From positions 1 through 64,000 of the IMG/VR virus record IMGVR_UViG_3300045960_000114: a stretch of DNA of 64,000 nucleotides. One strand, written 5' to 3'. The notes beneath the pieces were generated by a model. The model was not told the DNA's origin, searched no databases, and saw only the letters and a list, made by a program, of their open reading frames with translations. Made by a program: the position numbers and the translations under genes. This stretch comes from a virus. Positions 18,559 to 64,000 of this stretch are shown in pieces. Positions within the stretch are counted from its first letter, which is position 1. Every line of letters begins with the position of its first letter.

Positions 18559-18696
18559 ATGCGCGTGACTGCGTATATCCTCGTGGTAGTATTCATCTTG
18601 GGCACCTGTGGGTGCGGGTCAAGGTCGAGGAGACTCCACGACCTCAACACCGTGTTGAATAGGCCGCCAGTTACGGAGGTGCGCCGTGCCATTTAA
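18559..18696 (+). CDS. Small putative lipoprotein
   Basis: MRVTAYILVVVFILGTCGC: hydrophobic signal followed by Cys; overlaps the next gene. Confidence 0.35.
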   Translation: MRVTAYILVVVFILGTCGCGSRSRRLHDLNTVLNRPPVTEVRRAI

Positions 18697-19399
18697 ATCG
18701 AAGTCTCAGCAGAGATTCATGTTTGCCGCCGAGGGACGTGGCGAGATCCCGAAGGGTACGGCTGAGCGGTGGGCGCGCCACACGAAGAACATCAAGAGTC
18801 TCCCAGAGAAAAAGAAGAAGAAGGAGGAGGACAACGTGAAGAAAAGTGAGCTGGTCCTGCAGAAGTACGCGAGTCTCATCTGCAGTCTTCCGGAGAGGAA
18901 ACGGAATGCAGTGATGGCCCAGCTGGTGTATCCGACGCAGGATACCCCGCTCAGCAAGATGGCCAGTGTTCTGGCAGCCCTGCCGGACAACGTCCAGATC
19001 AAGTTGGCGACCCTCGCCATTACGTCGAAGCGCAGTGGGTCGTTCATCAAGCAGTCCGCTGAAGTCATGCTCTGGCGCGAGAAGATCGCGCAGATCCCTA
19101 ACATGACCAAGCTCGAGAAGCGTGCGTTCTGGAACCTCCTGGCCCCGGCGGCTGGCTGGATTGGTCGGGATGCTCTGCCGTGGCTCGGCAAGCAGGTCGG
19201 CAGCGTTGGTAAGTGGCTGGGCGGTGGCAAGGGCGGCATTCTGGGCAATGCCGGCCAGTGGCTTGGTGGTGACGCTTCCAAGTACATGAGCGGACTTGGC
19301 AAGGACTTTGCCGGGCGCGGGTTAGAGGGAGCGATCGCTACTGCCGCCGGACAGGGCATGCGCCTTCCTAATCAGATGAAGAGCTGGCAGGCTCCTTAA
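18686..19399 (+). CDS. Putative virion internal protein (basic N-terminus, several KxA motifs, Gly-rich C-terminus)
   Basis: MPFKSKSQQRFMFAA N-terminus; KYA, KMA, KLA, KIA and KRA sites; SD GGAGG with GTG start. Confidence 0.6.
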   Translation: MPFKSKSQQRFMFAAEGRGEIPKGTAERWARHTKNIKSLPEKKKKKEEDNVKKSELVLQKYASLICSLPERKRNAVMAQLVYPTQDTPLSKMASVLAALPDNVQIKLATLAITSKRSGSFIKQSAEVMLWREKIAQIPNMTKLEKRAFWNLLAPAAGWIGRDALPWLGKQVGSVGKWLGGGKGGILGNAGQWLGGDASKYMSGLGKDFAGRGLEGAIATAAGQGMRLPNQMKSWQAP

Positions 19400-19414
19400 G
19401 CATACGGAGGCACA

Positions 19415-19837
19415 GTGGACGCTACTGCGCTGCGTAAGATGGCGTTCAAGATCGGCTTCCTGACCAAGTTGGCGGAAGCCGGTCTGACGCCACGCGACTT
19501 TCAAGAGAAACTGGCCATGCGGAGCGCGTCAGCAGGCGGCGATCCGACCCAGCTTCTTTACGATGTCGCCAAAGGCGGACTCGGCGAGGTTACTTCCGCC
19601 GGAAAACAGGGGATCGGTGCCGTCACTTCGGCTGCTTCCAACCTCCCGTCCTTGGCCGCTTATGGACTGACTGGCTTGCCAGTCGCCATCGGCGGCGGGC
19701 TGGGCGCGTTGGAGCAGCTTACTCAAGCACCTACCTCGCTGGACACTGAGTTGATCCGCAAGGCCGAGCAGATCGGCCTCTACAACCAGCTGATTAGGGA
19801 AATCCATGAGCGACGAAAGTCAAGGTCCGCTGTCTGA
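19415..19837 (+). CDS. Putative virion protein with glycine-zipper helix
   Basis: LRKMA, TKLA and EKLA motifs; GLTGLPVAIGGGLGAL. Confidence 0.6.
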   Translation: MDATALRKMAFKIGFLTKLAEAGLTPRDFQEKLAMRSASAGGDPTQLLYDVAKGGLGEVTSAGKQGIGAVTSAASNLPSLAAYGLTGLPVAIGGGLGALEQLTQAPTSLDTELIRKAEQIGLYNQLIREIHERRKSRSAV

Positions 19838-21096: not shown

Positions 21097-21107
21097 GGGC
21101 TACGCGA

Positions 21108-24100
21108 ATGATGGGCGTGCCCGACAAGCCTGGGCTTAACCCGGCCACGAGCACCAAGCCGCTGGACTACACGCTTGGTTCCACACCGCCACCGCCTCAG
21201 GTGACGCATCGGTCGTTCACGGATTACCCTAAGATCCGACAGAACGTCTTCGACAACGCGCTCAAGGCGATGTCCGAGAAGTACCCGATTGAAAATCAAC
21301 GGCATCGATTGGAGCTGCGGGAGGCGAAGTACGAGGATCTGAACCCGTTCACCCTGAAGGACCAGAAGAAGGCCATCATGGAGGGCGGTACCCTCCAGAA
21401 GAAGATCCTGGGCACGTGGGCGCTCGTGGACAAGGCGACCGGCAAGGTAATGGACCAGAAGGCCACCACCGTCGCGCACGTGCCGTGGATGACCCAACGT
21501 GGTACGTTCATCTTTAATGGCAACGAGTACACGGTTGCCAACCAGATGCGACTGAAGCCCGGTATCTTCACCCGCGTGCGCGAGAACGGCGTTCTGGAAG
21601 CACACGTCAACGTCAAGCCTGGCACCGGCCCGTCCTTCCGCATCTACATGGAGCCGGATACCGGCGTCTTCAGGCTTGGCGTGGGGCAGTCCAACCTGAA
21701 GCTCTACCCCATCCTGCGTTCGATGGGCGTGTCCGATCACGATATCACGAAGCATTGGGGTCCGGAAATCCTTCAGAAGAATATCGAGGCCGAGGATCCG
21801 CGCGCGGTAGCCCGCGCATACATGCGACTGGTCAACGTCCGGTCTGAGGAGAGTGCCAAGGCTGAAGGCGCGGCGATGGATAAGGAAGCCTCCCTGTTTG
21901 GCGTGGACCCTGATTTTGACAAGGCGTACAGGGAAGGTTCGGAACTCACCAGCGACCTGTTCGACCCGCCGGCTGAAATATGGTCGCGGGTGTGCATCAA
22001 GAAGTCGCCCGTAGAGGGGAAGGGTCTGTTCGCCAGCCTCAACTTCGATGCCGGCGAGACCATCTTCCCTGCCTTCGTGTTCACCGGGATCGACAAGCAC
22101 AACGACAGCATCAAGCGGTCGGTTCCGGCACGCTGGCTGAACCATAGCGACACGCCGAATATCGAGTTGTACGAGGACGGAGACATCGTCTGGGCGCGTG
22201 CGCTGAAGCCCATTCAGGCTGGCGAGGAGCTGCTGCCGGATTACGTGCAGTCGCATGAAGCGGTCAATTCCTGGGTGAGCCGGCTGCTGCCGCTCCTCGA
22301 GAAGTCGGCCAAGATCGGCGCCCGGGAGAGTGATCGGCGCTGGACGAAGTTGTGGTACACGGGCCGGCTGATCCACTCCAGGCACAACCAGAAGGACTGG
22401 GTGCTGCTCAAGGTCCACAAAGGGCTGTGCGAGGCCACGTATGACTCGCTGAAGGCCGAGGGGATCGACTGCGAGCCCAAGTTCGACCAGCCGCACATCA
22501 GCATTATGCGCCCGGAGGAAGTCGAGCAGCTCAAGAAGAAGTTCGGCAATTCCTGGCAGGGTGCGGCCAAGATCGGCCATCCGATGCGTTTCAGCGTCAC
22601 CCGCATCGTGAATCTGGTGCCGGCGGGCTGGGACAAGTACGACCGCGTCTGGTTTCTTGAGTGCTCCTCGCCCGACCTGGAGAAGTACCGCGAGGACTTG
22701 GGGCTGCCCTGCCTCCCGCAGAACAACGAGAGCGGGCACGACATGCGCTTCCACATCACTGTGGCGGTGCATCCAAATACCGTGTCGAAGGCTGCGGAGC
22801 TGCTGTGCGAGAAGAGGGCTGCCGCGTTCGATGACGTTGGCTCCGGTACGAATGCTGTATCACCCAGGCCGGACAACCAGGGCAAGGCGCTGCTCGAGCA
22901 TTTCCAGAAGATGGAAGTCGACCCGGAGGTCACATCGGCCACGCTGGGTCAGGCGCACACCAACATTGGCATCCCTACGCTGATGCGTACCACGCAGAAG
23001 CTGATTAACGTCTCCCGCGAAACGGAAGACACGGATGACCGCGATTCGCTGTCTTTCCAGACGCTGCATGGTCCGGAGGACTTCTTTGCCGAACGTGTGA
23101 AGCGTGACGCGGGGATGATTGGTCGAAAGATGCTGTGGCGCGCGTCTGCTCGTGGGAACCTGAAGCATGTTCCCGCCGGTGTTCTGACCCCGCAGCTTCA
23201 TAGTGTGTTGCTCAACTCCGGCATGGGTATGCCGCTGGAAGAGACCAACCCGCTGGACATCTTTGACCAGAATCAACGTATTCTGCGGCTTGGCGAAGGC
23301 GCCATTCCATCCATCGAAGCAGTCCCTGATGAAGCACGCTCGGTTCAGCCGTCACACTTCGGGTTTATTGACCCGGTCAAGGCGCCTGAGTGCTATGACG
23401 AGGCGACTGAGGTCATGGTTGAGACTGGGTGGAAACCGTGGCCGAAGGTGACCGAATCTGACAGATTTGCTTGTCTCATTAATGGCAGGCTTGAGTATCA
23501 CCACGCTGACCGGTTGATCGCGGAGACCTACAAAGGACAGATGTATGGTGCGGATACTCAGACATTGAGTTATCTGGTAACGCCAAACCACCGCATGTGG
23601 GTGCGTCCTCAGGGGTCCACGAAGAAAGATTACAACCCGACTTACCGATTTGAGTTACCTGATGAGATTGTAGGCACAAACCGCCTATTCCGCTGCGGTG
23701 GGCATGCTCCAGTCGGCGGAACGCGAACTGGATTTACCCTTCCAGTAATTGAGGCGGATGGTAAGGAAAACCAGATTCACGGTAATCCACCTATTGGCTC
23801 CTCACTGAAGGTGTTCAAGGAAGTTGACATAAACGATTGGGCTGAGTTCATGGGGTGGTATCTCAGTGAGGGTAGTCTCAATGGGCAGTATGTAACTCGG
23901 ATTACCCAGTCGAACGTGGCGAACCCCGAGAACTGCTTGGCGATCAGTAGGCTTCTCAATCGATTACCTTTCACGTGGTGTTTCGTTGAAGGCGACACGT
24001 TCACCATCTCATCGAAACAACTGAATAGCTACCTCACACAGTTTGGGTTCTGTAACGATAAGTTTATCCCGAGTGAGATCTGGGAAGCCCCTGTTCTGGC

Positions 24101-27100
24101 GCGTGAGTTATTCTTGAGAGCGTTACTGGCTGGTGATGGGCGGACTAACAGGTACGGACGCAAGAGTCAGCTTTGCACTACCAGTCGGCGACTGGCTGAT
24201 GATGTGCAGCTTCTGGCATTTCAGTTGGGTCACTCTACTAGAATCTCGTTCGAGAAGGATGAGCGAAAAGATACGTACCTTGGATGTTATATCGTCAATA
24301 TCCACGCCAAGAATGAGCGTCTCGTTGTTGGTCGAAGCGCGTATCATCCCGACGGTCAATACCGTTCGGTAAACTATGACGGAAAGGTTTACTGCGCTAC
24401 CGTCCCTGGTGGTTTGTTGTACGTCAGGCGCGGTAACTCAGCTGGATTCTGGTGTGGTAACAGTGAGAAGATCGGCGTGGATCTGCGTGTCGCTCATGGC
24501 GCTGTCAAGGGATCTGACGGTCAGTTCTACACCACCGTGAAGAACGTCCAGAGCGGCGAGCGCGAACTGGTGTCGGCATCCAGCATGTCCAAGTCGGTCG
24601 TGGCATTCCCCGGCGAGATGAACCGAGACACGCCGAAGGTGCGGGCCATGGTCAACTCCAGGCGCGTGGAATACGTGCCTCGGGACGACGTGCAGTACGA
24701 GCTTCCTCATGGCTCAAACATGTTCGCCGCTGGCTCGAACATGGTGCCCATGATCGGCGGGATCAAGGGTGGCCGTCTGTTGATGGGTTCCAGAATGGTG
24801 ATTCAGGCGCTGCCGCTCAAAGGTGCGGAAGCACCGCTTGTCCGCAGCGCCGGCGAGGACGGGAACAGCTTCGAGAACCTCTACAGCGAGTACGTGGGGG
24901 CCGTTCGCGCCAAGGGGCACGGCGTCATCGAGCATGTGGATCCGGATAAGATGGTTGTCCGGTACAAGAACGGTGAGCGCGAGACACACGAGCTCTACAA
25001 CAACATGCCGTTCAACCGCAAGACACTGATCCACAGCACGCCACTCGTCAAGATCGGCGATACCGTGCGGCCCAACCAGCTCATGGTACACAGCAACTAC
25101 ACGGACAGGGAAGGCAACATCGCGCTGGGGCGCAACCTGCGCGTGGCCTACATGCCCTACCACGGCTCGAATTTCGAGGACGCCACTGTCATCAGCGAGT
25201 CGGCGGCCAAGAAGCTGTCCAGCGAGCACATGTACCAGGTCTCGCACGAAGTGGACAAGGACACGACGGTCGGGCGCAAGGAGTTCGTTTCCATCTTCCC
25301 GGCCAAATACCCGAAGGACGGGTTGAAGCATATCGACACCAATGGCGTTGTGAAGCCCGGTTCGATCGTCAAGCACGGCGACCCGCTGGTCCTGTCCATG
25401 CAGAAGGGCAAGATCGACGCACTGCATCGCGGGCACAGCCCGATGTGGTCCGACAAGACAACGGAATGGCATCACACGTCCGATGGGTTGGTCACCGACG
25501 TGGCGCCGACAAAGGATGGCGGCTGGAACATCATCGTCAAGTCGTACGCCCCCATGCAGGAAGGCGACAAGATGAGTGGCCGGTACGGGGACAAAGGTAT
25601 CGTCTCCAAGATCCTGCCCGACCATCAGATGGTGCATGACAAGGACGGCAGACCGTTTGACGTGATCCTGAACCCATTGGGAATTGTCTCTCGCATCAAT
25701 CCCAGTCAGGTTGTCGAAGCGGCGTTGGGCAAAGTGTCTGAACACACCGGCAAGCCGTACTCAATGCCTGCCTTCATGGAAGACGACTTGATCGGGCACG
25801 CGCAGAAGGAGCTGGCCAAACACGGGCTATCCGACACGGAAGACGTGTTTGACCCTACTACCGGGCGCAAGATCCCCAAGGTGTTCACGGGCAACCGCTT
25901 CATCATGAAGCTGCATCACACGGCTGAGTCCAAGGGCCGTGGGCGCGACATAGGTGGTTACACGGCTGAAGGGCTGCCCGCGCGCGGCGGCGAGGGTGGC
26001 AGTAAGCGAATTGGCCAGATGGAGCAGGCGGCGCTGCTGTCGCACGGCGCTACGGAAGTGCTGAAGGACGCGCAGATCGTACGCGGCCAGCGTAACGATG
26101 ATTGGTGGAGTTCGTTCAGGCGTGGGTTGCCGCCACCTTCCCCCAAGGTTCCCTTTGTCTACGACAAGTTCCTGAACTACATGAAGGGCGCCGGCATCAA
26201 CACCGACAAGCGCGGTGACCGGATTCACCTGATGGCGCTGACGGACAAGGACGTTGAGAAGATGTCGTCCGGGGCGATCACCAGCCGCGATACGGTGCGC
26301 GGTGATACGATGGAAGAGATCCCTGGTGGCTTGTTCGACCGACACATCACCGGGGGACATAATGGTGATCGGTGGGGTCACATCGCACTGGCAGAACCCC
26401 TGCCGAACCCCGTGTTCGAGGAGCCCATCAGGACTCTGTTAGGTCTAACAGCATCCAAGTTCTCTGATGTGCTGGCGGGCAAGGAGAAGCTGGGCGGCAA
26501 CACCGGTTCGAAGGCGATCTACACGGCGCTAAACAACATCAAGACCGGCGACGCGATCAAATATTACGAAGGCGTGATCAAGGACGGGCGCAAGTCGGCG
26601 CGCGATAAGGCCATTAAGGCGCTAGGCTACCTGCGCGGGCTGGAGAAGGGCAAGCTCAACCCGGTCGACCTGATGATGAGTAAGGTGCCGGTCGTGCCGC
26701 CCAACATGCGCCCCATCACGGTCTTCCGCAAGATGACCATGGTTGCGGACCCGAACTACCTGTACCGCGACCTGATGTTCTCCAATGATGCTTTCAAGGC
26801 GGTCAGGGATGAACTGGGCGAGGAGCACTCCGGCGATGAGCGACTCAACCTCTACAACTCCTTCAAGGCAACCACTGGACTTGGTGACCCAGTTCAAGCG
26901 AAAACCAAAGACAAAGGAGTGCGAGGGCTGCTTGCACACGTGTTCGGGTCGGGAAGTCCCAAGTTCGGCATGTTCCAGCGGCGCGTGCTGTCGTCATCGG
27001 TCGACGAAGTCGGGCGGGCCACAATCACCGTCAACCCCGAACTCAACATGGACGAAGTGGGATTGCCCGAACCAAAGGCATGGGTGATCTACCGTCCGTT

Positions 27101-27608
27101 CATCACCAGGCGTCTCGTGCGGCGCGGTATGCCAATGTTGCAGGCGGCCAAGGAAGTAGCCAACCAGTCGAGGGTGGCGCGTGACGCGATGATGGAAGAG
27201 ATCACGCAGCGCCCGGTCATCATCAACCGTGCGCCGGTGTTGCACCGGTACGGGTTCATGGCAGCGTGGCCCAAGCTGGTCAAGGGCGAGACGCTACATG
27301 TACCACCGGTGGTTTGCAGCGGCTTTAACGCGGATTTTGATGGCGACAACATGAACTACCACGTTCCCGCTACGGACGGAGCCGTCAAGGACGCTGTTGA
27401 AAAGATGATGCCGTCGCGTAATCTTAGGTCTGTCAGGAACTTCGGTGTGCAGTACACCCCGAAGAACGAGTTCCTACTGGGACTCTACCTGGCCTCGAAG
27501 GCCGACAACAAGAACGAGCCTAAGGTCTTCGCCAACAAGAAGGCCGTGATGGATGCCTGGAAGCGCGGCGAGATTGACGTAGGTGACCGCATCGTAACGA
27601 GGGATTGA
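21108..27608 (+). CDS. rpoBC: DNA-directed RNA polymerase beta fused to beta-prime N-half, with embedded SET domain, 2H phosphoesterase and intein
   Basis: beta: GTFIFNGNEY..NQMRLKPG, GDKMSGRYGDKGIVS, GGSKRIGQME. beta-prime: GGLFD..RWGHI, VPVVPPNMRP, NRAPVLHR, FNADFDGDNM catalytic motif. Confidence 0.95.
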   Translation: MMGVPDKPGLNPATSTKPLDYTLGSTPPPPQVTHRSFTDYPKIRQNVFDNALKAMSEKYPIENQRHRLELREAKYEDLNPFTLKDQKKAIMEGGTLQKKILGTWALVDKATGKVMDQKATTVAHVPWMTQRGTFIFNGNEYTVANQMRLKPGIFTRVRENGVLEAHVNVKPGTGPSFRIYMEPDTGVFRLGVGQSNLKLYPILRSMGVSDHDITKHWGPEILQKNIEAEDPRAVARAYMRLVNVRSEESAKAEGAAMDKEASLFGVDPDFDKAYREGSELTSDLFDPPAEIWSRVCIKKSPVEGKGLFASLNFDAGETIFPAFVFTGIDKHNDSIKRSVPARWLNHSDTPNIELYEDGDIVWARALKPIQAGEELLPDYVQSHEAVNSWVSRLLPLLEKSAKIGARESDRRWTKLWYTGRLIHSRHNQKDWVLLKVHKGLCEATYDSLKAEGIDCEPKFDQPHISIMRPEEVEQLKKKFGNSWQGAAKIGHPMRFSVTRIVNLVPAGWDKYDRVWFLECSSPDLEKYREDLGLPCLPQNNESGHDMRFHITVAVHPNTVSKAAELLCEKRAAAFDDVGSGTNAVSPRPDNQGKALLEHFQKMEVDPEVTSATLGQAHTNIGIPTLMRTTQKLINVSRETEDTDDRDSLSFQTLHGPEDFFAERVKRDAGMIGRKMLWRASARGNLKHVPAGVLTPQLHSVLLNSGMGMPLEETNPLDIFDQNQRILRLGEGAIPSIEAVPDEARSVQPSHFGFIDPVKAPECYDEATEVMVETGWKPWPKVTESDRFACLINGRLEYHHADRLIAETYKGQMYGADTQTLSYLVTPNHRMWVRPQGSTKKDYNPTYRFELPDEIVGTNRLFRCGGHAPVGGTRTGFTLPVIEADGKENQIHGNPPIGSSLKVFKEVDINDWAEFMGWYLSEGSLNGQYVTRITQSNVANPENCLAISRLLNRLPFTWCFVEGDTFTISSKQLNSYLTQFGFCNDKFIPSEIWEAPVLARELFLRALLAGDGRTNRYGRKSQLCTTSRRLADDVQLLAFQLGHSTRISFEKDERKDTYLGCYIVNIHAKNERLVVGRSAYHPDGQYRSVNYDGKVYCATVPGGLLYVRRGNSAGFWCGNSEKIGVDLRVAHGAVKGSDGQFYTTVKNVQSGERELVSASSMSKSVVAFPGEMNRDTPKVRAMVNSRRVEYVPRDDVQYELPHGSNMFAAGSNMVPMIGGIKGGRLLMGSRMVIQALPLKGAEAPLVRSAGEDGNSFENLYSEYVGAVRAKGHGVIEHVDPDKMVVRYKNGERETHELYNNMPFNRKTLIHSTPLVKIGDTVRPNQLMVHSNYTDREGNIALGRNLRVAYMPYHGSNFEDATVISESAAKKLSSEHMYQVSHEVDKDTTVGRKEFVSIFPAKYPKDGLKHIDTNGVVKPGSIVKHGDPLVLSMQKGKIDALHRGHSPMWSDKTTEWHHTSDGLVTDVAPTKDGGWNIIVKSYAPMQEGDKMSGRYGDKGIVSKILPDHQMVHDKDGRPFDVILNPLGIVSRINPSQVVEAALGKVSEHTGKPYSMPAFMEDDLIGHAQKELAKHGLSDTEDVFDPTTGRKIPKVFTGNRFIMKLHHTAESKGRGRDIGGYTAEGLPARGGEGGSKRIGQMEQAALLSHGATEVLKDAQIVRGQRNDDWWSSFRRGLPPPSPKVPFVYDKFLNYMKGAGINTDKRGDRIHLMALTDKDVEKMSSGAITSRDTVRGDTMEEIPGGLFDRHITGGHNGDRWGHIALAEPLPNPVFEEPIRTLLGLTASKFSDVLAGKEKLGGNTGSKAIYTALNNIKTGDAIKYYEGVIKDGRKSARDKAIKALGYLRGLEKGKLNPVDLMMSKVPVVPPNMRPITVFRKMTMVADPNYLYRDLMFSNDAFKAVRDELGEEHSGDERLNLYNSFKATTGLGDPVQAKTKDKGVRGLLAHVFGSGSPKFGMFQRRVLSSSVDEVGRATITVNPELNMDEVGLPEPKAWVIYRPFITRRLVRRGMPMLQAAKEVANQSRVARDAMMEEITQRPVIINRAPVLHRYGFMAAWPKLVKGETLHVPPVVCSGFNADFDGDNMNYHVPATDGAVKDAVEKMMPSRNLRSVRNFGVQYTPKNEFLLGLYLASKADNKNEPKVFANKKAVMDAWKRGEIDVGDRIVTRD
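21993..22247 (+). other. SET domain embedded in RNAP beta
   Basis: All three canonical SET motifs: KSPVEGKGLFA, RWLNHSDTPN, GEELLPDY. Confidence 0.88.
22311..22790 (+). other. 2H phosphoesterase domain embedded in RNAP beta
   Basis: Two H-x-[ST] motifs, PHISI (His codon at 22494) and FHITV (His codon at 22752), about 86 aa apart. Confidence 0.75.
23391..24461 (+). mobile_element. Intein (357 aa) with LAGLIDADG homing endonuclease
   Basis: Starts CYDEATEV; block B VTPNH; endonuclease blocks FMGWYLSEGS and FLRALLAGDG; ends GFWCGN followed by Ser. Visibly lower GC than the flanks. Confidence 0.93.
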
Positions 27609-27632
27609 CGGCCTGACTTACTGGAGACACCC

Positions 27633-27920
27633 ATGGCGAAACAAGATCTTCTTCAGATTCTGAAATCAGCGTGTGCGACGAACTGCTCGCCGATGCCTAA
27701 GAAGAAAAAGGCAACGATGGAGAAGAAAGCGCCGCCCGCCCCAGTAAAGACTGCGCAGCTGACAAAGGAGGAGGCGCTTGCGAAAGCGGCTTCCCTGGCG
27801 GTCATGTTGAAGGCCGGAGTGAAGGACGGTACTGAGAAGCGTGCAGCACTGAACAAGATCATTGCGGCTGAAGGCGTTGATGCATCACTCAATGCCGTTT
27901 TGAAATACCTCGAGGGATGA
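27633..27920 (+). CDS. Small basic KxA-rich protein
   Basis: ILKSA, VKTA, LAKAA and EKRAA in 95 aa; SD GGAG. Confidence 0.65.
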   Translation: MAKQDLLQILKSACATNCSPMPKKKKATMEKKAPPAPVKTAQLTKEEALAKAASLAVMLKAGVKDGTEKRAALNKIIAAEGVDASLNAVLKYLEG

Positions 27921-28120
27921 ACGCGCGCGCGTACTTAGTCAAACGGGCGCTGCCTGATCCGTTGGGGTTTCAGATGCGGCGACCGTTTCACGACCCGCGA
28001 CCGAATGAGTTCACGCGGGACGACCAGAGGTTTTTGCAGCAGCTTCTCGCGAAGCTGCCACCGATCAACCGGCGACCGGTGAAGGCCAGGATACACGGAA
28101 GAAGCGAGGTGGACGGATGA
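27917..28120 (+). CDS. Small protein with MNARAYLVKRA leader
   Basis: ATGA overlaps on both sides; leader shared with other ORFs. Confidence 0.65.
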   Translation: MNARAYLVKRALPDPLGFQMRRPFHDPRPNEFTRDDQRFLQQLLAKLPPINRRPVKARIHGRSEVDG

Positions 28121-28899
28121 ACAAGATCAACGCGGAGCTACTGCAGCGCATTCGTGCTGGGTTGACGAAACAGGCATTCGTCCCGATGGGGCCGAATGGT
28201 GCGCAGACGCCGCCCCCGCAGGATCCGAGCATGCAGGGGCCGCCTATGATGCCGCCTGGCGGTGCACCCGGGATGGATCCGTCTATGGGTGGTATGCCTC
28301 CCGGCGGTGCGCCAGGTGGTGCCCCGCCTGGTGCTGATCCTTCCGCTGCTGGTATTTCGGGTTCGGGTCAGCCGGTCATGCTGCAGATGCAGGATCTCAT
28401 GCAGCTTGTCCAGATGATGGGCAGCGGCGGTGGTGGCGGTGGCGCTGGCGGCGCCGGCGGCGGGGGTGCTGGCGGTGGCGGCGGAAAAGGCGGCGGAGCA
28501 AAGGAGTTGGCTGGAAAAGTTGATGCGATTGCCAACGACATCGCGCAGCTCAAGGCGTTCATCATGGGCACGCAGGCCAATGGCGGTGGGATGCCACCCG
28601 GCGGCGCGCCGCCTCCAATGGGTTCGCCGGTCAGTCCCGAGGCTGGCCCGCAGACGCCGATGATCCCCGGCCAGCCGCCTGGAATGCCGCCTGGCATGGA
28701 TCCGTCCATGATGGGCATGGATCCGTCCATGATGCAGGGTGGAATGCCCCCTGGCGGAATGCCGCCTGCCGGTCCTGCAGGCGGGATGCCACCTGGCGGG
28801 ATGCCGGTGCAGGCCAGTTTCGGCAAGCAAGCTGAGAAGGCGCCTCCGATGCCGAAGGCGCAGGTTCTTTCCGGGATCATCTCGAGGCTTCGAAGATGA
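28117..28899 (+). CDS. Pro/Gly/Met-rich low-complexity protein
   Basis: GGMPPGG and MDPSM repeats bounded by LTKQA and GKQA. Confidence 0.7.
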   Translation: MNKINAELLQRIRAGLTKQAFVPMGPNGAQTPPPQDPSMQGPPMMPPGGAPGMDPSMGGMPPGGAPGGAPPGADPSAAGISGSGQPVMLQMQDLMQLVQMMGSGGGGGGAGGAGGGGAGGGGGKGGGAKELAGKVDAIANDIAQLKAFIMGTQANGGGMPPGGAPPPMGSPVSPEAGPQTPMIPGQPPGMPPGMDPSMMGMDPSMMQGGMPPGGMPPAGPAGGMPPGGMPVQASFGKQAEKAPPMPKAQVLSGIISRLRR

Positions 28900-29117
28900 A
28901 AGTACGAATCGACAAGAACGGCTTCGAGTCCGAGATGTTAACGGACGCCAAAGCCATTGTCGTATTCGATGACTTCGACAACCCGATGTACGCTGCGAAG
29001 CAGATCAACGAGCACAACAGCGTACACGAGAAGGCAGGCGAACCCGGGTTCGAACAGATGCTGAAGACGTTTGGCTTGCGCCTGAAGGTTCCTTACAAAA
29101 CGGTGAAGATGACATGA
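28896..29117 (+). CDS. Hypothetical protein (73 aa)
   Basis: ATGA overlap with the upstream gene; typical codon usage. Confidence 0.6.
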   Translation: MKVRIDKNGFESEMLTDAKAIVVFDDFDNPMYAAKQINEHNSVHEKAGEPGFEQMLKTFGLRLKVPYKTVKMT

Positions 29118-30172
29118 GCGCTTACGAACTGCTTAAACGGGCCGATGAGGTTTACGCCATGCGGAAGCTGGCGTTCCTTGCCGGCGTTGAGGCTTTCTGT
29201 TTGCAGGCTGGCATGTCCCGTTCCGCGCTGGTACCGATCGTGAAGGTGGCCGAGGAGTTGGTCGAGGGAAGTGGCGATCTGCACGAGGCCATGCATAAAT
29301 GTGGGGCTGGTCCGGAGGATTATGCCAGATCGTTTGCCACGCCCACAAATGTCGCATACGGAAGTTCCGGAGGAAGGATAAAGGGGAACCGACCTTACAT
29401 ACCGCCGACGCCTACTTGGGACAACGCGACGAAGCAGACCATGACGCCTACCGTTGGTTCTTCTGCCCAAACAGCGGCGCCTACGGCACCTACGGAAGGA
29501 AGTGCTTCCTCCACTCCTGCACAAGCGCCGCGCAGATCAGAGGGTGCGGCGAAGACATTCGGAACTGCCGAGCAACTGGCTAAGAGTAATCCTCAGTCAG
29601 GTATGAGTAATTGGTGGTGGGCTGGTGGGATTCCGGGTGCTGTAGCGGGTTGGGCGTACAACAATCTCGGTGATCAGACGAACAAGGATTTGCAGGAAAA
29701 GACGCGATACGAAGTTAACCGCGAGGGCGGTAAAGTCACTGAAGCGAAAAATCCGACAACTGACGTAGAGTGGAAGCAGATGCAGCATCGAAATGCTGGG
29801 TTGGCTAGAGAAACTCTAAATACTGCGTATCAGCAGTACCTCACGAATGCATCTTCGATGGGTCCAGCGCAAGCCGCTGTGTTTTCTCAGACCGAGCATC
29901 CAGGTGCCTTTGAACACATTGAAAAGACTTTCAAAGATCCAAAGACCGGGAAGTGGACTTATCCGACAGCTGATATGGGTTGGGCGCCCGGTAAACCGTA
30001 CGATCCAGCAGGGCCAGGAGTTGCCACCATGGCTGCGGGTGGTTACAACACTTCAACACCTACTTCAGCTGCAGCTCCAACGACGACACCAGCGCCGGCG
30101 CCTACAACATCAAGTGCACCGCCGGATGCCGGGCCGCAGCCGTCTACCATGGCAAATCCGTCACCACCGTAA
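29114..30172 (+). CDS. Putative virion protein (KxA leader, Pro/Thr-rich, lower-GC body)
   Basis: MSAYELLKRA and RKLA motifs; WWWAGGIPGAVAGW hydrophobic stretch. Confidence 0.6.
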   Translation: MSAYELLKRADEVYAMRKLAFLAGVEAFCLQAGMSRSALVPIVKVAEELVEGSGDLHEAMHKCGAGPEDYARSFATPTNVAYGSSGGRIKGNRPYIPPTPTWDNATKQTMTPTVGSSAQTAAPTAPTEGSASSTPAQAPRRSEGAAKTFGTAEQLAKSNPQSGMSNWWWAGGIPGAVAGWAYNNLGDQTNKDLQEKTRYEVNREGGKVTEAKNPTTDVEWKQMQHRNAGLARETLNTAYQQYLTNASSMGPAQAAVFSQTEHPGAFEHIEKTFKDPKTGKWTYPTADMGWAPGKPYDPAGPGVATMAAGGYNTSTPTSAAAPTTTPAPAPTTSSAPPDAGPQPSTMANPSPP

Positions 30173-30181
30173 GGGATAGGT

Positions 30182-32039: not shown

Positions 32040-32429
32040 ATGAACAAGCAGGCATTCGAGATGGGTCTGTGCGTTGGCTACGCTTCGGCGGTCATGCCGA
32101 CGAATGAGGCGTTCGAGAAGAGCGCGTCGATCACCGGTTTCAAGGCTGCCGACATCAAGCGCGCCTATGTTGAGAAGGTTGCGTCGCCGTGGCTGCCGCT
32201 GCTGGCTGGCGGCGCTGGGCTAGCGCTTGGCGCGAATGTCCTCCCGCGCATGTACCGCTGGGCGATGGGTGGCGACCCGCAGGCGAGCCCCGTGCAGAAC
32301 GAAGTCCAGATGGACCCGTTCCACCAGCAGCTGCGCCGGCAGACCATGTACAACCAGGGTCTGTCCCGCGACCTGCAGGCGGCGCGCGGTGCGTTCGCGC
32401 CGGCAGCGAACCCGTTTGGCCAGTCGTAA
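32040..32429 (+). CDS. Small KxA protein, paralog A
   Basis: ATG after GGGAGG; MNKQA...EKVA then SPWLPLLAGG. Confidence 0.7.
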   Translation: MNKQAFEMGLCVGYASAVMPTNEAFEKSASITGFKAADIKRAYVEKVASPWLPLLAGGAGLALGANVLPRMYRWAMGGDPQASPVQNEVQMDPFHQQLRRQTMYNQGLSRDLQAARGAFAPAANPFGQS

Positions 32430-49573: not shown

Positions 49574-52387
49574 ATGTCCAGCTACGTTCTGCCGCAGGTC
49601 CTGGTCTTCCAGGAGTTCTTGAGCCGTCCGACGGCGCTGAATCAGCCTGCCAATGCCGTGATCATCGGCGAGCAGTTCCAGTTGTTCCGTTACGCCGTGG
49701 AGTCGGAGAAGGTCAAAACCAAGGTGACCGGTTCGTACGATTACCTGAATGACACCTGCTACGCGTGGCCTGGCCGCACGGCTGGCAATGAGGTGGACCA
49801 GACCTACACGCGCGTGTTCATCGATGACGCGCTACTGAAATACTTCAACGATCCGGTGGGTTCAGGTTCGAACATCAACTGGGTTGCCCCCGGCAAGAAC
49901 CGGATCCGCGCCGACAGCCTGGTCTTCCAGACGGCCAATGGCTACACGCGCTCTGCTGCCTTCCTGCGCGATGTCCAGGTCGGTGACGTCGTCAAGATTC
50001 TGGGCAATGACTGCGGCTCGGCCCTTCAGTTCTGGAGCACGGTCATCGGCCTGATCGCCGACACGGAAGCCTCGTCCATCGGTTCGGTCGTGGATGAGTC
50101 GACTAACCACGCGGCCACGACACTGTCGAAGGCCGTGTCAAAGACGGGTGGCACGACCAACAACGTCACCCTGACCGTCGGCAATGTCAATGTCACCACC
50201 TACGACGGGCTGGCCGATGGAAACCCCTCGGAGGTCTACACAGTTGAGGTGATCGGCGGCGGCGGACAGAATCAGGCCATCCTGCGAGTCACTTCCCAGT
50301 CCGGGAACGATGATGTTTCCAGCGTGATCTTCGATGTGGCGTTTGGTGCGCCTTTCGCCATCGGGACGCGCGGCCTGAAGGCCACGTTTACGTTGGTTGG
50401 CTCCACGAGCTACACGGATGACATCTTCCTGATCGGCCAGACGTGGGAGATCAGCGCCTCGCAGGCATGGACGCCCACGGTTCCTTCCAGCAGCGGCGAC
50501 TACATCGGGCCGTCCGATACGACCTACGTGGCCACCGTCACGCTGGGCGGCAAGTTCAACGCCACCACCAAGCCCCAGATCACCGTTTCCACAACCACGG
50601 GCATCGACATCTCTGGTCCGACGAACGTGACCGCTCCGGCGTCCGCCGTCCAGGTTGGAACACAAGGGGTATTCATTTCCTTCGCCGGCATCGCGACGGA
50701 TGGTCTGTGCAAGGGTGACCGCTACAACATCGCGGTGACCGCCTCTGCGCCGGGACCGATCCGCACGCTGGTCCTGGCCAACAACCTGCCGGAAGGGTTG
50801 CGCGGGTGGTGCCCCGTATCGGGTTCTTCGGGGTCCAGCCTGAGCAGCGGCTCAGTGCCTGACCTGGATGTGACGCTCTACATCAAGAAGAACATCGAGG
50901 TCCCCGAGACGCGCTCACTGGGCGTGTCGAACTGGACGCAGTCCGATACCGAGATCTGCATCGCAGCCGGTATCACGGCGTACGATTCCAGCTGGGCTTC
51001 CGGCGGTACGCTGGTTGCGCTGCCCGTCGAGGGTGGCAAGGTCTACGTGCAGCACCGCGACCGCGTGGCTAAGAACGCGGACGTGGTCGGAAGCATCACG
51101 GATGTGTCGGAGATCCCGGTCGTCTTCGCGCCTGCCGCTGAGATCGACCCGGACAACCCCCTGGTGTTCGGAGCGTACAATGCGTTGCTGAACGCCAATG
51201 GTGAGACGGTCTACTTCATTGCCGTCCGCAGCCATTCGCCGGTCACGCTGGCCGATTGGCTCACCGCCCTCTCCTACCTGGAAGGGCGAAATGACGTCTA
51301 CTCCCTGGTTCCGATGACTCAGGACAAGCAGGTGCTGGATGCTGTTGTGGCGCACTGCGAGTCCCAGTCTTCGCCTGAACGAGGTCGCTGGCGCATCTGC
51401 TGGCTCAACATGGCCGCTGTCGAGACCATCGGGGTATACACGACCTCCGTTGTCAACCCCGGCGAACCCGTGCTGGCCACCATCGAAGACGACCCCGATA
51501 CGGGCGGCACGCAGTACACGATCGTTGAGGCGGCTGGTGAGACGTTCATCACCAAGGGTGTCCGTCCCAATGATACGGTCCGCGCGCTCTACACCACGGA
51601 CGGCTTCGGAAACATCACCTACTCCGAGTTCATCGTGGATGAGGTGCTCAACGAGGAAACGATTCGGCTGTTCAGCGGACCTGACGCGCCTGTCCTGATC
51701 CCGAGCAAGATCGAGATCTGGCGGACGCTCAGTAAGACCGAGGTTTCGGCTAACCTGGCACAGAACCCCGGCCTGTTCAGTAGCCGGCGCGCCTACCTCA
51801 TCTGGCCGGACACGGTTGGTAATGCCGGCAAGACGTTCCCCGGCTATTACCTGTGCGCCGCGCTGGCCGGTCTGCGATCCGGCGTCCAGCCGCACCAGGG
51901 TCTGACCAACGTCGAAATCCTCGGATTCGACGACCTGAGCCGAACGACGGAATACTTCACCGAGACGCAGCTGAACGTGATGGCGTCTTCCGGTTACTGG
52001 ATCGTGACTCAGGATCCGAACACGGGCGCTGTCTTTACACGGCATCAGCTGTCCTGCGGCGATCAGTCGGATGTCAATCAGCGTGAGCAGAGCATCACGA
52101 CCAATCTGGACAACATCTCCTACGGGATGTTGGAAGCGTTGGCGCCCTACATCGGCAAGGGCAACGTGACGACCACGATGATCAGCATTGTGGAAGGCAT
52201 CCTGATTGGCAAGCTGCAGGAGTACAAGAACAACACGGTCGTGCCGCGCTTGGGACCGCAGATCTCGGCGGCCACGATCACCGAACTGGCACAGCACCCG
52301 ACGTATAAGGACCGCATCGTAGCGCGGGTCCTCTGTACGCTGCCTGCGCCGTTCAATAACATGGAACTCTATTTAGTCGTGCAGTAG
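49574..52387 (+). CDS. Tail sheath protein
   Basis: 937 aa; MSSYVLPQV.VFQEF N-terminus; C-terminal sheath-like PGYYLCAALAG..PHQGLTN..RHQLS..EQSITTNLDNI..PFNNMEL. Confidence 0.85.
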   Translation: MSSYVLPQVLVFQEFLSRPTALNQPANAVIIGEQFQLFRYAVESEKVKTKVTGSYDYLNDTCYAWPGRTAGNEVDQTYTRVFIDDALLKYFNDPVGSGSNINWVAPGKNRIRADSLVFQTANGYTRSAAFLRDVQVGDVVKILGNDCGSALQFWSTVIGLIADTEASSIGSVVDESTNHAATTLSKAVSKTGGTTNNVTLTVGNVNVTTYDGLADGNPSEVYTVEVIGGGGQNQAILRVTSQSGNDDVSSVIFDVAFGAPFAIGTRGLKATFTLVGSTSYTDDIFLIGQTWEISASQAWTPTVPSSSGDYIGPSDTTYVATVTLGGKFNATTKPQITVSTTTGIDISGPTNVTAPASAVQVGTQGVFISFAGIATDGLCKGDRYNIAVTASAPGPIRTLVLANNLPEGLRGWCPVSGSSGSSLSSGSVPDLDVTLYIKKNIEVPETRSLGVSNWTQSDTEICIAAGITAYDSSWASGGTLVALPVEGGKVYVQHRDRVAKNADVVGSITDVSEIPVVFAPAAEIDPDNPLVFGAYNALLNANGETVYFIAVRSHSPVTLADWLTALSYLEGRNDVYSLVPMTQDKQVLDAVVAHCESQSSPERGRWRICWLNMAAVETIGVYTTSVVNPGEPVLATIEDDPDTGGTQYTIVEAAGETFITKGVRPNDTVRALYTTDGFGNITYSEFIVDEVLNEETIRLFSGPDAPVLIPSKIEIWRTLSKTEVSANLAQNPGLFSSRRAYLIWPDTVGNAGKTFPGYYLCAALAGLRSGVQPHQGLTNVEILGFDDLSRTTEYFTETQLNVMASSGYWIVTQDPNTGAVFTRHQLSCGDQSDVNQREQSITTNLDNISYGMLEALAPYIGKGNVTTTMISIVEGILIGKLQEYKNNTVVPRLGPQISAATITELAQHPTYKDRIVARVLCTLPAPFNNMELYLVVQ

Positions 52388-52400
52388 AGTTGGAATGGGC

Positions 52401-52445: not shown

Positions 52446-52721
52446 ATGACGAAGAGCGCCGAATACCTGATCTGCCAGGCTTTGGAAGAGAAGCAGGCGT
52501 ACCCGGCTGTGTTGCAGGCGATCTACGAGAAGGGTGTTCAGCCGATCGCCAGTGGGATCGAGCGAACGCCAAAGGCATTGAGCCAGATTCTGGGTCGACT
52601 TAAGGGCGTACCTTCGCAGCAGGCGGCAGCATTGGCGCACAAGCGCATGCTGGACGCAGCAGCTGCGGCAGCGTACATGAGTAAGATGAAGAGCAGGCCG
52701 ATGATTGGTGCCGGCAGCTAA
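52446..52721 (+). CDS. Small KxA protein between sheath and tube
   Basis: ATG after GAGGGAG; MTKSA..EEKQA. Confidence 0.55.
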   Translation: MTKSAEYLICQALEEKQAYPAVLQAIYEKGVQPIASGIERTPKALSQILGRLKGVPSQQAAALAHKRMLDAAAAAAYMSKMKSRPMIGAGS

Positions 52722-55843: not shown

Positions 55844-55846
55844 ACG

Positions 55847-58381: not shown

Positions 58382-58384
58382 TCT

Positions 58385-58867: not shown

Positions 58868-58868
58868 T

Positions 58869-61347: not shown

Positions 61348-62139
61348 GTGATAAGCGATACTCCTGAGCACAAAGAGAACAACTTCCCCGTGTGGAAGCC
61401 GGAACCACCCAAGCGAAAGCCTTCCTTGGACGAGGTTTACAGCAAGTGGAAGATGGCACCCACGCCCGGCAACTTCTCGGAGCTGCTTGACTCGGCCAGG
61501 CCGGTGATGAACTCAGCGCTCACCACCTACGCAGGCGGCAACAAGTCGTACCTGGGCCACGCCAAGCTGCTGGCAGCCAAAGCTTTCAGGACATACGACC
61601 CGACCCGGGGAGTTAAGCTGCATACTCACCTGATCACGCAGATGCAGCCGCTCATGCGCACAGCGCGCGAGCACAACATGCCAGTTTACGTGCCGGAGCG
61701 TGTGAGCATCGAGGGTGCCCACCTCAGGCGGGCTGAGCGTGAGCTGAATGAAAAACTGGGTCGGGAACCAGCTGACACTGAGTTGGCGGATCACACCGGC
61801 CTATCCTTGAAACGAATCCTCCACATCCGGAAATTCAACCGAGGTGATGTACCTGAGTCTGGGTTGACCATGCGGGCAGAAGACGGTGAGGAGGAAGTTT
61901 TTCACCCGGCCATGGAGACGAAGGACCACAACAAGGTCTTCCTGGAGTACGTTCACCACGACCTGGACCCCATCAACCAGAAGATACTGGAGTGGAAGAC
62001 AGGGCTCAATGGAGTCAGGGTGTTGTCAAACAACGAGATCGCAAGGCGGCTGAAACTGTCACCCGCAGCCATTTCGCAGCGGTCGGCGAAGATCGCGCAG
62101 ATGGTGGCTGAAGCACAATCTACGGAGGGTTTGAAATGA
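61348..62139 (+). CDS. Sigma-70 family factor
   Basis: Region 2 (KAFRTYDPTRGVKLHTH), region 3 (LGREPADTELADHTG) and region 4 HTH (SNNEIARRLKLSPAAISQ). Confidence 0.85.
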   Translation: MISDTPEHKENNFPVWKPEPPKRKPSLDEVYSKWKMAPTPGNFSELLDSARPVMNSALTTYAGGNKSYLGHAKLLAAKAFRTYDPTRGVKLHTHLITQMQPLMRTAREHNMPVYVPERVSIEGAHLRRAERELNEKLGREPADTELADHTGLSLKRILHIRKFNRGDVPESGLTMRAEDGEEEVFHPAMETKDHNKVFLEYVHHDLDPINQKILEWKTGLNGVRVLSNNEIARRLKLSPAAISQRSAKIAQMVAEAQSTEGLK

Positions 62140-62573
62140 TCGACCCTCAACTTGAGCAAAGCGTCGTTCCATACATGATCCAGACGGAGAAGCGCATCTC
62201 GGAGAAGATGAAGGCCGGCGGCGACCGGCCCTGGCTCGATTTTGCTGATTACAAGGGACTGACTCCGGCGGGGAAGTTTGACTTTGCCAAACTGCACGAG
62301 AATTTCAACCGGAAGTCAGCCACGGATGATTACGCGAGCAAACGAAAACAACGGGATGCCCAGGTGAAGGACATCCAAACGTCCAAACTGTCGATCGACT
62401 TCCTGTCAGGCTGTGAGCGCGATTGGCGCATGCGCACGCGCAGCCGGGTCCGCATGTTCGTGCACGCAGAGGTCACCTCGCCGGCTGCCCTTGGCGACTC
62501 AGCTGGCCCGCTGCGGAAGAACACAATCGACTGGATGTCGAATATCATGGTTGAGGAGCCAGACAAGCAATGA
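62136..62573 (+). CDS. Hypothetical protein
   Basis: ATGA overlaps on both sides. Confidence 0.65.
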   Translation: MIDPQLEQSVVPYMIQTEKRISEKMKAGGDRPWLDFADYKGLTPAGKFDFAKLHENFNRKSATDDYASKRKQRDAQVKDIQTSKLSIDFLSGCERDWRMRTRSRVRMFVHAEVTSPAALGDSAGPLRKNTIDWMSNIMVEEPDKQ

Positions 62574-63043
62574 GCACTTCAACCAACTACAGCGGCAGGA
62601 CGGTTGACCTGCTGATTTTTCAAAACACGAAGCCCTCTGGAAACCAGAAGATCTTCATGGGATTCGGCACGGGCGGTGAGTTGACGACTGGCGTCCAGAA
62701 GGTGTCGCAGACCTTCACCACGATCCTGCTGACTGACATAGGCTCGGTGTACGACCAGCCTGATTACGGGACCGATCTGATACTGTCCATACAGTCTGGA
62801 CAGACGCAGAACGGAAGCGATCTCGAATCGGCGTTCAACATCGCAGCGGCGGCTGCAAAGTCGATCATGGATCAGGCCGCCGAAGATGCAGGTGCGCCGC
62901 CAGATGAGCGCTTGAGCACGGCTGTGCTCTCGGACTACATCCTGGACAAGAACAGTGGGAAGATCGTATTGACCGTGGTGATCACCACGGAGGCCGGTGC
63001 AAGTGCGACCATCTACCTGCCTGTGAGTGTGCCCATCACATGA
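62570..63043 (+). CDS. Baseplate wedge subunit, gp25-like
   Basis: TGVQKVSQ.F..ILLT..GS...P.YGT.L and DERL..A.L pattern. Confidence 0.6.
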   Translation: MSTSTNYSGRTVDLLIFQNTKPSGNQKIFMGFGTGGELTTGVQKVSQTFTTILLTDIGSVYDQPDYGTDLILSIQSGQTQNGSDLESAFNIAAAAAKSIMDQAAEDAGAPPDERLSTAVLSDYILDKNSGKIVLTVVITTEAGASATIYLPVSVPIT

Positions 63044-64000
63044 ACATGCGCGACCTGAAAGCGTCGTTGTATAAACGGGTGCTGACCAAGCGGGCGGCGC
63101 TGAAGCCCGACATCACCCTGCTGCCGCACCAGGAACGCGTGGTGTCCAAATGGCAGGGCGAGGACCAGCCGCCGGGCATGCTGGTCTATCACGGGCTGGG
63201 CAGCGGCAAGACCCCCACGTCGATCGCCGTCGGCGAGTCCATGCCGGGCATCAAGAACGTGGTCGTGCCTGCCGCGCTGCGCGAGAACTACCGCAAGCAG
63301 CTGCGCCAGTTCTCCACCGACCCTCGCAAGTACCATGTCATGTCTTACGAAGAGGCATTGAAAGGCAAGCCGGAATCATCGCTCACCGTTTTCGACGAGG
63401 CGCATCGGATGGGACGTGAAGGGACAGCCATTAGTATGCTGCCCCGACGGATGACAGGTAGAAAGCTGCTGCTGACAGGCACCCCGGTACGTAACGAGCC
63501 GTCGGAGATCGTGCCGCTGCTCAAGGCCATCGCCCCGGATCGGCCCATCCCGAAGACGCAGGAGGCGTTCAATCAGCAGTTTATTCGCACGCAGCTGGTT
63601 CATCCCGACATCCTCACGCGGCTGTTCCTGGGGATCAAACCAGGCGAGCGGCAGGTGTTCACGGAGCCTGAGAAGTTCAAAAAGCTGGTTGAGGGGCGTG
63701 TCGACTACCAGCCGTCGAAAGGCGAGTTCCCGGGGTTTGATGAAAAGCACATCGACGTGGACATGACACCAGAGCAGTCGGATCTGTACCGGGGCGTGAT
63801 GAGTGGCAGTCCGATGGCCTGGAAGATCCGGCTCAACCTGCCGCCTAGCAAGGCAGAATCAGCCCGGCTGAACTCGTTTTTGTCGGGTGTGCGGCAGATC
63901 TCTAATAATCCCTCCGCTTACGACAAGCGGCTGGTGGGCGACCCTGTCGATCACTCCCCGAAGCTGCAGCGTATGGTGGATGACGTGCAGAAGGGGTTGA
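63040..64000 (+). CDS. SNF2/SF2 helicase N-terminal ATPase lobe (3' truncated), not in the ORF track
   Basis: LLPHQ (Q motif), HGLGSGKT (Walker A), FDEAH, LLTGTP..N; the frame is open to the window end. Confidence 0.9.
   Translation, partial: MNMRDLKASLYKRVLTKRAALKPDITLLPHQERVVSKWQGEDQPPGMLVYHGLGSGKTPTSIAVGESMPGIKNVVVPAALRENYRKQLRQFSTDPRKYHVMSYEEALKGKPESSLTVFDEAHRMGREGTAISMLPRRMTGRKLLLTGTPVRNEPSEIVPLLKAIAPDRPIPKTQEAFNQQFIRTQLVHPDILTRLFLGIKPGERQVFTEPEKFKKLVEGRVDYQPSKGEFPGFDEKHIDVDMTPEQSDLYRGVMSGSPMAWKIRLNLPPSKAESARLNSFLSGVRQISNNPSAYDKRLVGDPVDHSPKLQRMVDDVQKGL

Follow-up and report, generated by a model that had tools for sequence, protein, structure and literature searches.

The virus record IMGVR_UViG_3300045960_000114 is 185,265 bp long with ~58% G+C, and its first 64 kb (positions 1 to 64,000, hereafter the window) hold a phage head module, a tail sheath gene (49574-52387) and a split multisubunit RNA polymerase (21108-27608, with Rpb2_6 and Rpb1_1/2 domains, and 30182-32026, with Rpb1_5). 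From 11.4 kb onward nearly all genes lie on the + strand, and a number of their products carry, close to the N-terminus, the five-residue motif h-x-K-x-A, in which h is Leu, Met or Phe, less often Ile or Val. We examine here this motif together with the head protease gene at 38618, naming genes by their lower coordinate. The whole record yields 236 genes with a codon model, their starts being picked from the Shine-Dalgarno match and the codon type, blind to the motif. This picker is imperfect, with wrong starts for 32465 and for the protease of related locus L014, so that our counts are conservative rather than inflated. We define the virion module as the + strand genes at 18.6-72 kb (51 proteins) and compare it with the remaining 185 proteins of the genome. 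The same blind gene calls were made on four complete relatives of 195-216 kb (G001-G004), and 13 related loci from IMG/VR, at 33-83% identity in the major capsid protein, were added. Among cultured phages, Salmonella phage Arash and Vibrio phages D69, D148 and D181 are closest (28-30% major-capsid-protein identity), with Bacillus phage G further off; phage records gave no match when searched by megablast with the head region. The G+C content of the relatives, phages of Salmonella and Vibrio among them, ranges from 44 to 64%.

The motif-bearing genes of the module that lie in the window are all on the + strand. The 140-amino-acid (aa) product of 19415-19837 has LRKMA (19430-19444) followed by LTKLA (19460-19474), the second of which is kept in its G001 and G002 orthologs. 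Beyond the large RNA polymerase gene come a 95-aa protein (27633-27920; ILKSA at 27657-27671, MEKKA at 27717-27731), a small protein with the full leader MNARAYLVKRA (27917-28120; motif at 27935-27949), a 260-aa protein (28117-28899; LTKQA at 28162-28176) and a 352-aa protein (29114-30172; LLKRA at 29129-29143, MRKLA at 29159-29173). The 129-aa product of 32040-32429 opens with the minimal unit MNKQA and holds five K-x-A in total; in its G001 ortholog, the aligned place is taken by an 11-aa leader with LTKEA at its end. A small glycine-zipper protein (32465-32749) carries the leader MMNSAREYLVKSA and then directly LDKQA (32489-32518), and a 160-aa protein (35101-35583) the leader MNSVRTYLIKLA (motif at 35122-35136). 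Within the head genes, the motif is found in a 246-aa protein (37885-38625; LTKEA at 37924-37938), in a K/A/E/Q-rich scaffold-like protein with 14 K-x-A (40116-41342; FIKEA at 40161-40175, MAKKA at 40191-40205) and in the 313-aa major capsid protein (42430-43371, phrog_2522 major head protein; LRKEA at 42508-42522, aa 27-31), and a head-assembly protein (36450-37829) has 12 K-x-A sites. Further on are a 428-aa protein (43445-44731; LEKAA at 43460-43474), a 205-aa protein (46529-47146; FLKTA at 46583-46597) and a 91-aa protein opening with MTKSA (52446-52721), whose start is uncertain, an upstream ATG lying at 52395. Glycine-zipper, membrane-like segments (LLAGGALGAYAI, LVGALAGGALGAPIG) come after the N-terminal region in 32465-32749 and 48141-48779, and also after several leaders of G001; such small proteins may be ejection or pore proteins.

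A first-pass annotation of the window had quoted 14 leaders of this kind, and all 14 are present at the starts given there. The residue two before the Lys is hydrophobic, as it had noted, and mostly Leu, Met or Phe; the leaders of 32040 and 52446 need internal starts, and the Shine-Dalgarno picker chose the same ones. Sites in the major capsid protein (42508-42522), in the protease (38711-38725) and in gene 57074 had been missed, and two further motif genes, 71098 and 87075 (− strand), lie beyond the window. Over all 236 genes, [LIVMF]xKxA is 2.8-3.0 times denser in residues 1-30 than in the rest of the proteins (p 2e-6), and longest-open-reading-frame starts give the same N-terminal enrichment (p 3e-7). 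Seven control patterns, including hxExA, hxRxA, hxKxG, hxKxL and AxKxh, are flat at N-termini, and when all residue pairs at gaps 0-3 are compared with no preset pattern, KxA comes first of 1355 tests (p 1.1e-6). The scope is narrower than the genome-wide one first proposed, the motif being restricted to the virion module: it occurs in the first 30 residues of 17 of the 51 module proteins (0.0150 per position) versus 11 of the 185 others (0.0020 per position), where composition predicts 0.00125. The earlier statement that it is missing from the sheath holds, and extends to most tail genes. The comparison by position and gene class against shuffled proteins, which that annotation had put forward as a check, reveals strong enrichment: shuffling residues 2-32 within each protein gives ~3.5 sites (3.3-3.6) in ~3.3 proteins, against 22 sites in 17 proteins observed, and none of 5000 such local-composition shuffles reaches 22. 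Some units stand in tandem (for example LVKSA then directly LDKQA; LIKAA then MTKTA). The positions between and after the key residues are free, and the Leu, Lys and Ala codons vary synonymously among instances, so that the signal lies at the protein level; a nucleotide-level signal is ruled out on the same ground.

The motif is also conserved by position. In the four complete relatives it lies near the N-terminus in 37 of 196 genes of the virion-module bins versus 41 of 750 others (p 2.7e-8). In the major capsid protein its Lys and Ala are invariant in all nine orthologs (30-77% identity) while the flanks vary, the sites at about residues 29-31 reading LRKEA, HIKEA, IVKNA, LRKQA, MSKEA and RTKKA; in gp226, which forms the Arash capsid (30% identity to the 42430 product), the site reads LVKEA, and the column-based comparison given below matches it in 9 of 9 orthologs. 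In protease orthologs, residues 31-37 read W-[ML]-x-K-R-A-A; of these, K34 and A36 do not vary across an alignment of 10 sequences and are at least 90% conserved in one of 50, as are K239 and A241, which sit in a linker of low predicted local distance difference test score (pLDDT) after the catalytic domain. Across seven head, virion and RNA-polymerase families, K-x-A is matched within two alignment columns in 47% of ortholog cells, where eleven control patterns reach 6-28%, and the sites of 36450 are conserved in 39 of 96 ortholog cells. The phage G protease homolog, gp19, has GLVKTAA, and in the adjoining gp20 and gp21, K-x-A stands at a distance of ten residues from the start. Outside the head module, 87075-88802 (− strand) encodes a 575-aa DUF5661 protein whose [IL]P-x-F-V-K-x-A (about aa 25-32) is conserved across the four complete relatives. 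Lys and Ala are common residues (5.7% and 9.2%), KxA alone is just 1.4-fold enriched genome-wide and one pair of leader genes in G001 is paralogous, so that Lys/Ala-rich amphipathic helices, small-gene paralogy or biased start choice might be thought to produce the pattern with no specific signal behind it. We regard this as very improbable given the shuffles, the flat reverse and charge-swapped controls, the blind starts and their agreement with longest-reading-frame starts, the unrelated cargo bodies, the positional conservation and the replication across four other genomes. The motif is real, conserved and statistically very strong.

The gene at 38618-40075 (+ strand) encodes a protease domain at about aa 15-230 followed by a helical, scaffold-like C-terminal domain, with 11 K-x-A in all. 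The first-pass annotation had called it a protease and gave no evidence; an AlphaFold2 model built from a 50-sequence alignment (pLDDT 82; an earlier one from 10 sequences, pLDDT 58, was unusable) now provides it, in the form of a gp21/assemblin fold. In an exhaustive structural comparison with VIA-align, T4 gp21 (5jbl_A) is the top match (Z 9.3, root-mean-square deviation 3.0, 135 of 165 aa, model residues 15-228), followed by the varicella-zoster virus protease (Z 7.0) and then by the cytomegalovirus and Kaposi's sarcoma-associated herpesvirus assemblins. Foldseek against BFVD returns many prohead proteases (E 1e-5 to 1e-9), phage G gp19 and proteins of PaBG and phiRSL1; against PDB no match attains E <= 0.001, and T4 gp21 comes no higher than rank 48. 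The profile phrog_18299 (head maturation protease) matches 4 of 10 relatives (E ~9e-6). H56, H118 and S170 are invariant and H196 is at least 90% conserved in the 50 sequences. The gene lies in a head gene order (32829 ... 36450, 37885, 38618, 40116, 41380, 41816, 42430, the last encoding the major capsid protein) shared with 13 relatives and with phage G (gp14-gp27), and a gp21-fold protease is found in every relative examined. Its β-barrel fold and its placement in the head module are features of MEROPS clan SH (S21, S77, S78, S80), and after a linker the protein runs into its long helical domain, which is the protease-scaffold arrangement of herpesviruses. The model thus points to a gp21/assemblin-fold prohead serine protease, with catalysis predicted. 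Several protease homologs are ~860 aa long and contain Hint, intein-splicing or LAGLIDADG domains (L009/L010 5168-7786; P0011, P0019, P0057, P0062, P0086, P0112, P0116); these are inteins inside the head protease, inserted before an invariant H-x-T-F (~aa 105-108 of the 38618 product).

We consider it likely, from the patterns of occurrence and conservation, that h-x-K-x-A is the recognition motif of this phage's own prohead protease and represents a new specificity. The distribution of K-x-A over whole proteins, with the excess per protein judged by a Poisson test, resembles that of a protease site. The excess is significant in five proteins: the head-assembly protein 36450 has 12 observed versus 3.5 expected (p 2.6e-4), the protease itself 11 versus 3.7, 40116 14 versus 5.7, 32040 5 versus 0.8 and, outside the window on the − strand, 87075 16 versus 5.4, all but the last being on the + strand. 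The major capsid protein has exactly one K-x-A, in its leader, the decoration-like 41816 product has none and the sheath has one versus 2.1 expected. The 36450 product may be a core or scaffold protein destined for fragmentation, and a scaffold role may also be assigned to 40116, which lies between the genes of the protease and the major capsid protein.

K-x-A also marks the junctions of two enzyme polyproteins. The first is the virion RNA polymerase of 21108-27608 (+ strand), a 2166-aa fusion of beta and N-terminal beta' parts recognised by its Pfam domains, in which a SET and 2H phosphoesterase insert occupies aa ~247-588. K-x-A sites (K259, K399, K561 and K569) precede the SET and 2H domains, separate them and follow them. 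The G001 enzyme keeps K-x-A at these junctions although its linkers have otherwise diverged, and it has one extra HAD-like domain inserted, preceded by two K-x-A. The presence of a SET domain, together with a loose resemblance of the motif to the psi-K-x-E SUMO site, raises the idea that the motif Lys is modified, being methylated by that domain or conjugated by the Ubl-E1-E2-JAB cassette of the phage. The SET/2H insert is absent, however, from the RNA polymerases of G002, G003 and G004, and BLAST finds no homolog of any of the seven Ubl cassette genes in the four complete genomes G001-G004, all of which keep the motif; the invariant small Ala and the N-terminal placement also fit a protease site better. 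Lysine modification, largely set aside for the lack of these genes in relatives with the motif, seems to us hardly credible. A second insert of the 21108 product (aa ~763-1119, ~357 aa) contains a LAGLIDADG domain, is absent from the RNA polymerases of all four relatives and is probably an intein. The beta' C-terminal piece (30182-32026, + strand; RNA_pol_Rpb1_5, 1.5e-21) has no N-terminal motif and is likely a packaged partner of the 21108 product; the published virion proteome of Arash includes its homolog there, gp216.

The second polyprotein (63040-66855, + strand, 1271 aa; LTKRA at 63082-63096) is encoded among tail and baseplate genes and joins a helicase with SNF2 domains, a ligase-like module of LigD-type phosphoesterase kind and a Zn-peptidase module. 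Further K-x-A lie at aa 497, 555, 560 and 1036, so that 5 of 6 are in the leader or between modules. These modules exist apart in relatives: the helicase (aa 14-485) is a separate 472-aa gene in Arash (gp217), the ligase-like module (aa 564-1043) is a separate gene in G001, and the Zn-peptidase module has the G001 homolog G001_179173 (blastp E 3.6e-6), which starts MNPRAYLLKRA. The paralog of the latter, G001_177739 (placed by tblastn at 178075-178476), starts MNAKAYLIKQA. A Zn_peptidase_2-like module encoded within the virion module, with leaders of the same family on its G001 homolog and paralog, could itself be the enzyme that cuts a genuine cleavage motif. Alternatively, a host protease could do so; the host protease Prp processes the capsid and scaffold leaders of staphylococcal phage 80alpha. 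We judge either enzyme an improbable cutter. The Zn-peptidase match occurs in only one of five relative records searched (G001), and a single host enzyme is hard to reconcile with relatives that span 44-64% G+C and include Salmonella and Vibrio phages, whereas the 38618 family is present in every relative examined, with conserved K-x-A at its own domain borders as in self-processing proteases.

Besides the short motif, an 11-residue leader, M-[ND]-x-x-x-Y-L-[IVL]-K-x-A, is shared by four proteins here (27917, 32465, 35101 and 71098) and six in G001. These leaders end in the enriched motif, and the bodies of the ten proteins behind them are mutually unrelated (BLAST E > 0.1), one paralog pair excepted. 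The internal proteins of T4 likewise have diverse bodies, the capsid-targeting sequence (CTS) being their only common element (PMC3012670). Because a shared leader is joined to unrelated bodies as in those proteins, a loading role is likely for the long leader, which probably also acts as a capsid-targeting sequence, a point less certain than the protease motif and argued by analogy. We found no sign of sequence kinship to the T4 CTS or to Glu-type sites, hxExA not being enriched and LxE, at 2-fold, not being significant after correction; the leader is analogous rather than homologous to the T4 CTS. The five-residue leaders MNKQA (32040) and MTKSA (52446) suggest that the motif unit itself may be a docking element. 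One could go further and suppose that the motif only docks or targets, binding scaffold, portal or the protease-scaffold protein for cargo uptake with no cleavage at all. Such a tag would account for these two leaders, which make little sense as propeptides, for the portability of the full leader among unrelated bodies and for the motif-carrying Arash proteins listed with 100% coverage in the virion proteome. It leaves unexplained the 11-16 K-x-A spread through scaffold-like proteins, the polyprotein junction sites and the tandem LVKSA-LDKQA, and on balance we find it unlikely.

We propose that the motif is used for cleavage by the 38618 protease as follows. Inside the assembling prohead, the protease would remove propeptides at the N-termini of ~15 internal or ejected proteins, of the major capsid protein and of its own chain. 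It would also fragment scaffold-like proteins rich in K-x-A (36450, 40116, 87075 and the C-terminal domain of the protease) into small pieces that exit the shell, and would set free the modules of two packaged polyproteins, namely the helicase/ligase-like/peptidase protein and the RNA polymerase that carries SET and 2H inserts. The long leader would bring cargo to the scaffold/protease core and then be cut off, as with the CTS of T4 internal proteins. We infer in this scheme the cleavage, the identity of the 38618 product as the cutter, the bond that is cut and the targeting role. Two registers may be envisaged for the scissile bond by analogy with known enzymes, both in keeping with the P3-x-P1 logic usual in this family. 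The first would place Lys at P3 and Ala at P1, Ala being P1 in herpes assemblins; the second would place Leu, Met or Phe at P3, Lys at P1 and Ala at P2', giving a charge-reversed T4 site. Neither the start points nor the C-terminal ends of orthologs separate the two registers, and proteins ending in K-x-A, which were tested as product mimics, are neither enriched nor conserved. The K-x-A-specific cleavage and packaging code that the first-pass annotation had attributed to 38618 is supported in its core, at the level of sequence and predicted structure, by the fold, ortholog conservation, scaffold enrichment, junctions and portable leader, and fails in its genome-wide scope.

Several observations weigh against this scheme. 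Pfam gives no protease-family match for the 38618 product or for 10 relatives, PDB sequence searches with the protease are empty, and H56, H118, S170 and H196 are candidate catalytic residues, judged by conservation. Residues 15-36 of the protease, just before the conserved K-x-A, align to the gp21 fold; since they are part of it in the model, the K34-A36 site may not be a simple disposable leader. The five-residue leaders lack an obvious purpose as cleavage alone, and G004, the most distant relative, has no significant N-terminal enrichment. The Arash virion proteome, the sole one of a relative, gives coverage percentages and no peptide-level data on N-termini. Some motif-bearing Arash proteins reach 100% coverage there, which at face value speaks against leader removal; this figure sits oddly with 7-9 peptides per protein, and the preparation held many non-structural enzymes. 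The Arash helicase gp217 is also in that proteome, without any leader.

Systems of this kind are known, and what is new here is the code, the clade and a use that the motif appears to have at the junctions of polyproteins. To our knowledge, the well-described head-protease codes of T4 and of the phiKZ group all end in Glu. T4 gp21 cuts at L/I-x-E. Our phage shares with T4 gp21 and its CTS-bearing internal proteins (IPI-III) the protease fold, a short N-terminal leader on unrelated small proteins that ends in the presumed protease motif, the presence of that motif in major capsid and core proteins and determinants spaced i, i+2. It differs in having K-x-A with a hydrophobic residue two before the Lys instead of x-x-Glu, in the fusion of the protease to a long helical C-terminal domain, in the lack of sequence similarity to gp21 or the CTS and in that cleavage and targeting are here predictions. 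Herpesvirus assemblin (pUL26/UL80a) cuts (V/L/I)-x-A↓S, the R site being Y-[VL]-[KQ]-A↓S. Common to both are the fold, the order protease-linker-scaffold, a conserved site in the linker (K239-A241 here), a small Ala as the likely P1 and the Tyr and Leu upstream in the leader Y-L-[IV]-K-x-A. The apparent likeness of the sites has its limits: here, in a bacterial virus, register and residues differ, the Lys standing two before the Ala and no Ser following.

The proteases of phiKZ and SPN3US cut at S/A/G-x-E or A-x-E, and mass spectrometry of both phages has revealed multiple propeptide sites and self-cleavage beside the catalytic domain (PMC5694885, PMC10052503). The tandem, scaffold and junction patterns of K-x-A resemble these propeptide motifs. 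Like the giant phages of that group, whose proteases (phiKZ gp175, SPN3US gp245 and that of 201phi2-1) cut at (S/A/G)-x-E, ours belongs with large myophages that have a virion RNA polymerase and many head-internal proteins; in that group, propeptides hold several motif copies, the protease cuts itself and paralogs have identical leaders (PMC5694885, PMC10052503). In contrast to them, its major capsid protein is ~313 aa long and related to those of Arash and phage G, the P1 residue differs, and a beta/beta' fusion with enzyme inserts takes the place of five split RNA polymerase subunits. Arash (OQ632216), D69, D148, D181 and phage G have homologous major capsid proteins and proteases at 26-38% identity, and none has a described cleavage motif; in Arash, K-x-A occupies the corresponding position in both the protease (GLTKQA) and the major capsid protein (GLVKEA), and it occurs also in the neighbouring gp220-223. 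The paper on Arash presents it as an 'orphan phage' with RNA polymerase subunits in the virion and does not mention proteases or processing, and the multi-omics paper on phage G names gp19 as the head maturation protease and reports no cleavage sites.

A Lys/Ala-based code thus appears to be used by a large, almost unstudied clade made up of Arash-like phages and hundreds of metagenomic contigs, with genomes of 185-216 kb and a virion RNA polymerase. If confirmed, the motif would allow the proteins of the mature virion and the enzymes injected with them to be predicted from sequence, would explain the carriage of extra enzyme domains within fusion proteins and would offer a compact tag by which foreign proteins could be loaded into such capsids. 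A bolder version, which we find possible but doubtful, is that the h-x-K-x-A unit is at once loading tag and cut site, read by the protease-scaffold fusion acting as cargo receptor, and that this clade builds and unpacks enzyme polyproteins in the capsid. Were it true, the motif would be a modular 'plug-in' for injected effector enzymes, with new domains recruited by K-x-A flanks; such cargo would comprise the SET methyltransferase, the 2H phosphoesterase, the HAD-like domain of G001, the helicase, the ligase-like module and the Zn peptidase.

The protease family has at least 282 members in metagenomes, all unannotated. It also extends to 229 phage records, among them Rhodococcus phage Finch (gp17) and Gordonia phages; most of the records are Cluster C mycobacteriophages, in which the protein bears the annotation hypothetical. 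In Mycobacterium phage Catera, gp94 (L062 5770-9879) holds the protease within a 1369-aa protein with 18 K-x-A versus 8 expected, and EKQAKLA occupies aa 41-47 of the major capsid protein. On the bolder version above, K-x-A specificity may extend to the wider unannotated protease family phrog_2774, reaching phage G and the Cluster C mycobacteriophages.

Other features of the window lie apart from the motif-bearing head genes. Positions 1-11300 form a minus-strand block with a radical-SAM-like gene (CxxxCxxC, 3789-4631) and glycosyltransferase-like genes, in which the N-terminal motif is not enriched. Upstream of the motif-bearing block, two adjoining 374-aa genes (13903-15027 and 15037-16161) encode RCC1-like Gly-rich repeats, and both, like 11417-13894, are of atypical codon composition. 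Within the tail/baseplate block, 61348-62139 encodes a sigma-factor-like protein (phrog_351, E 1.6e-14), and the Arash virion proteome also lists a sigma factor.

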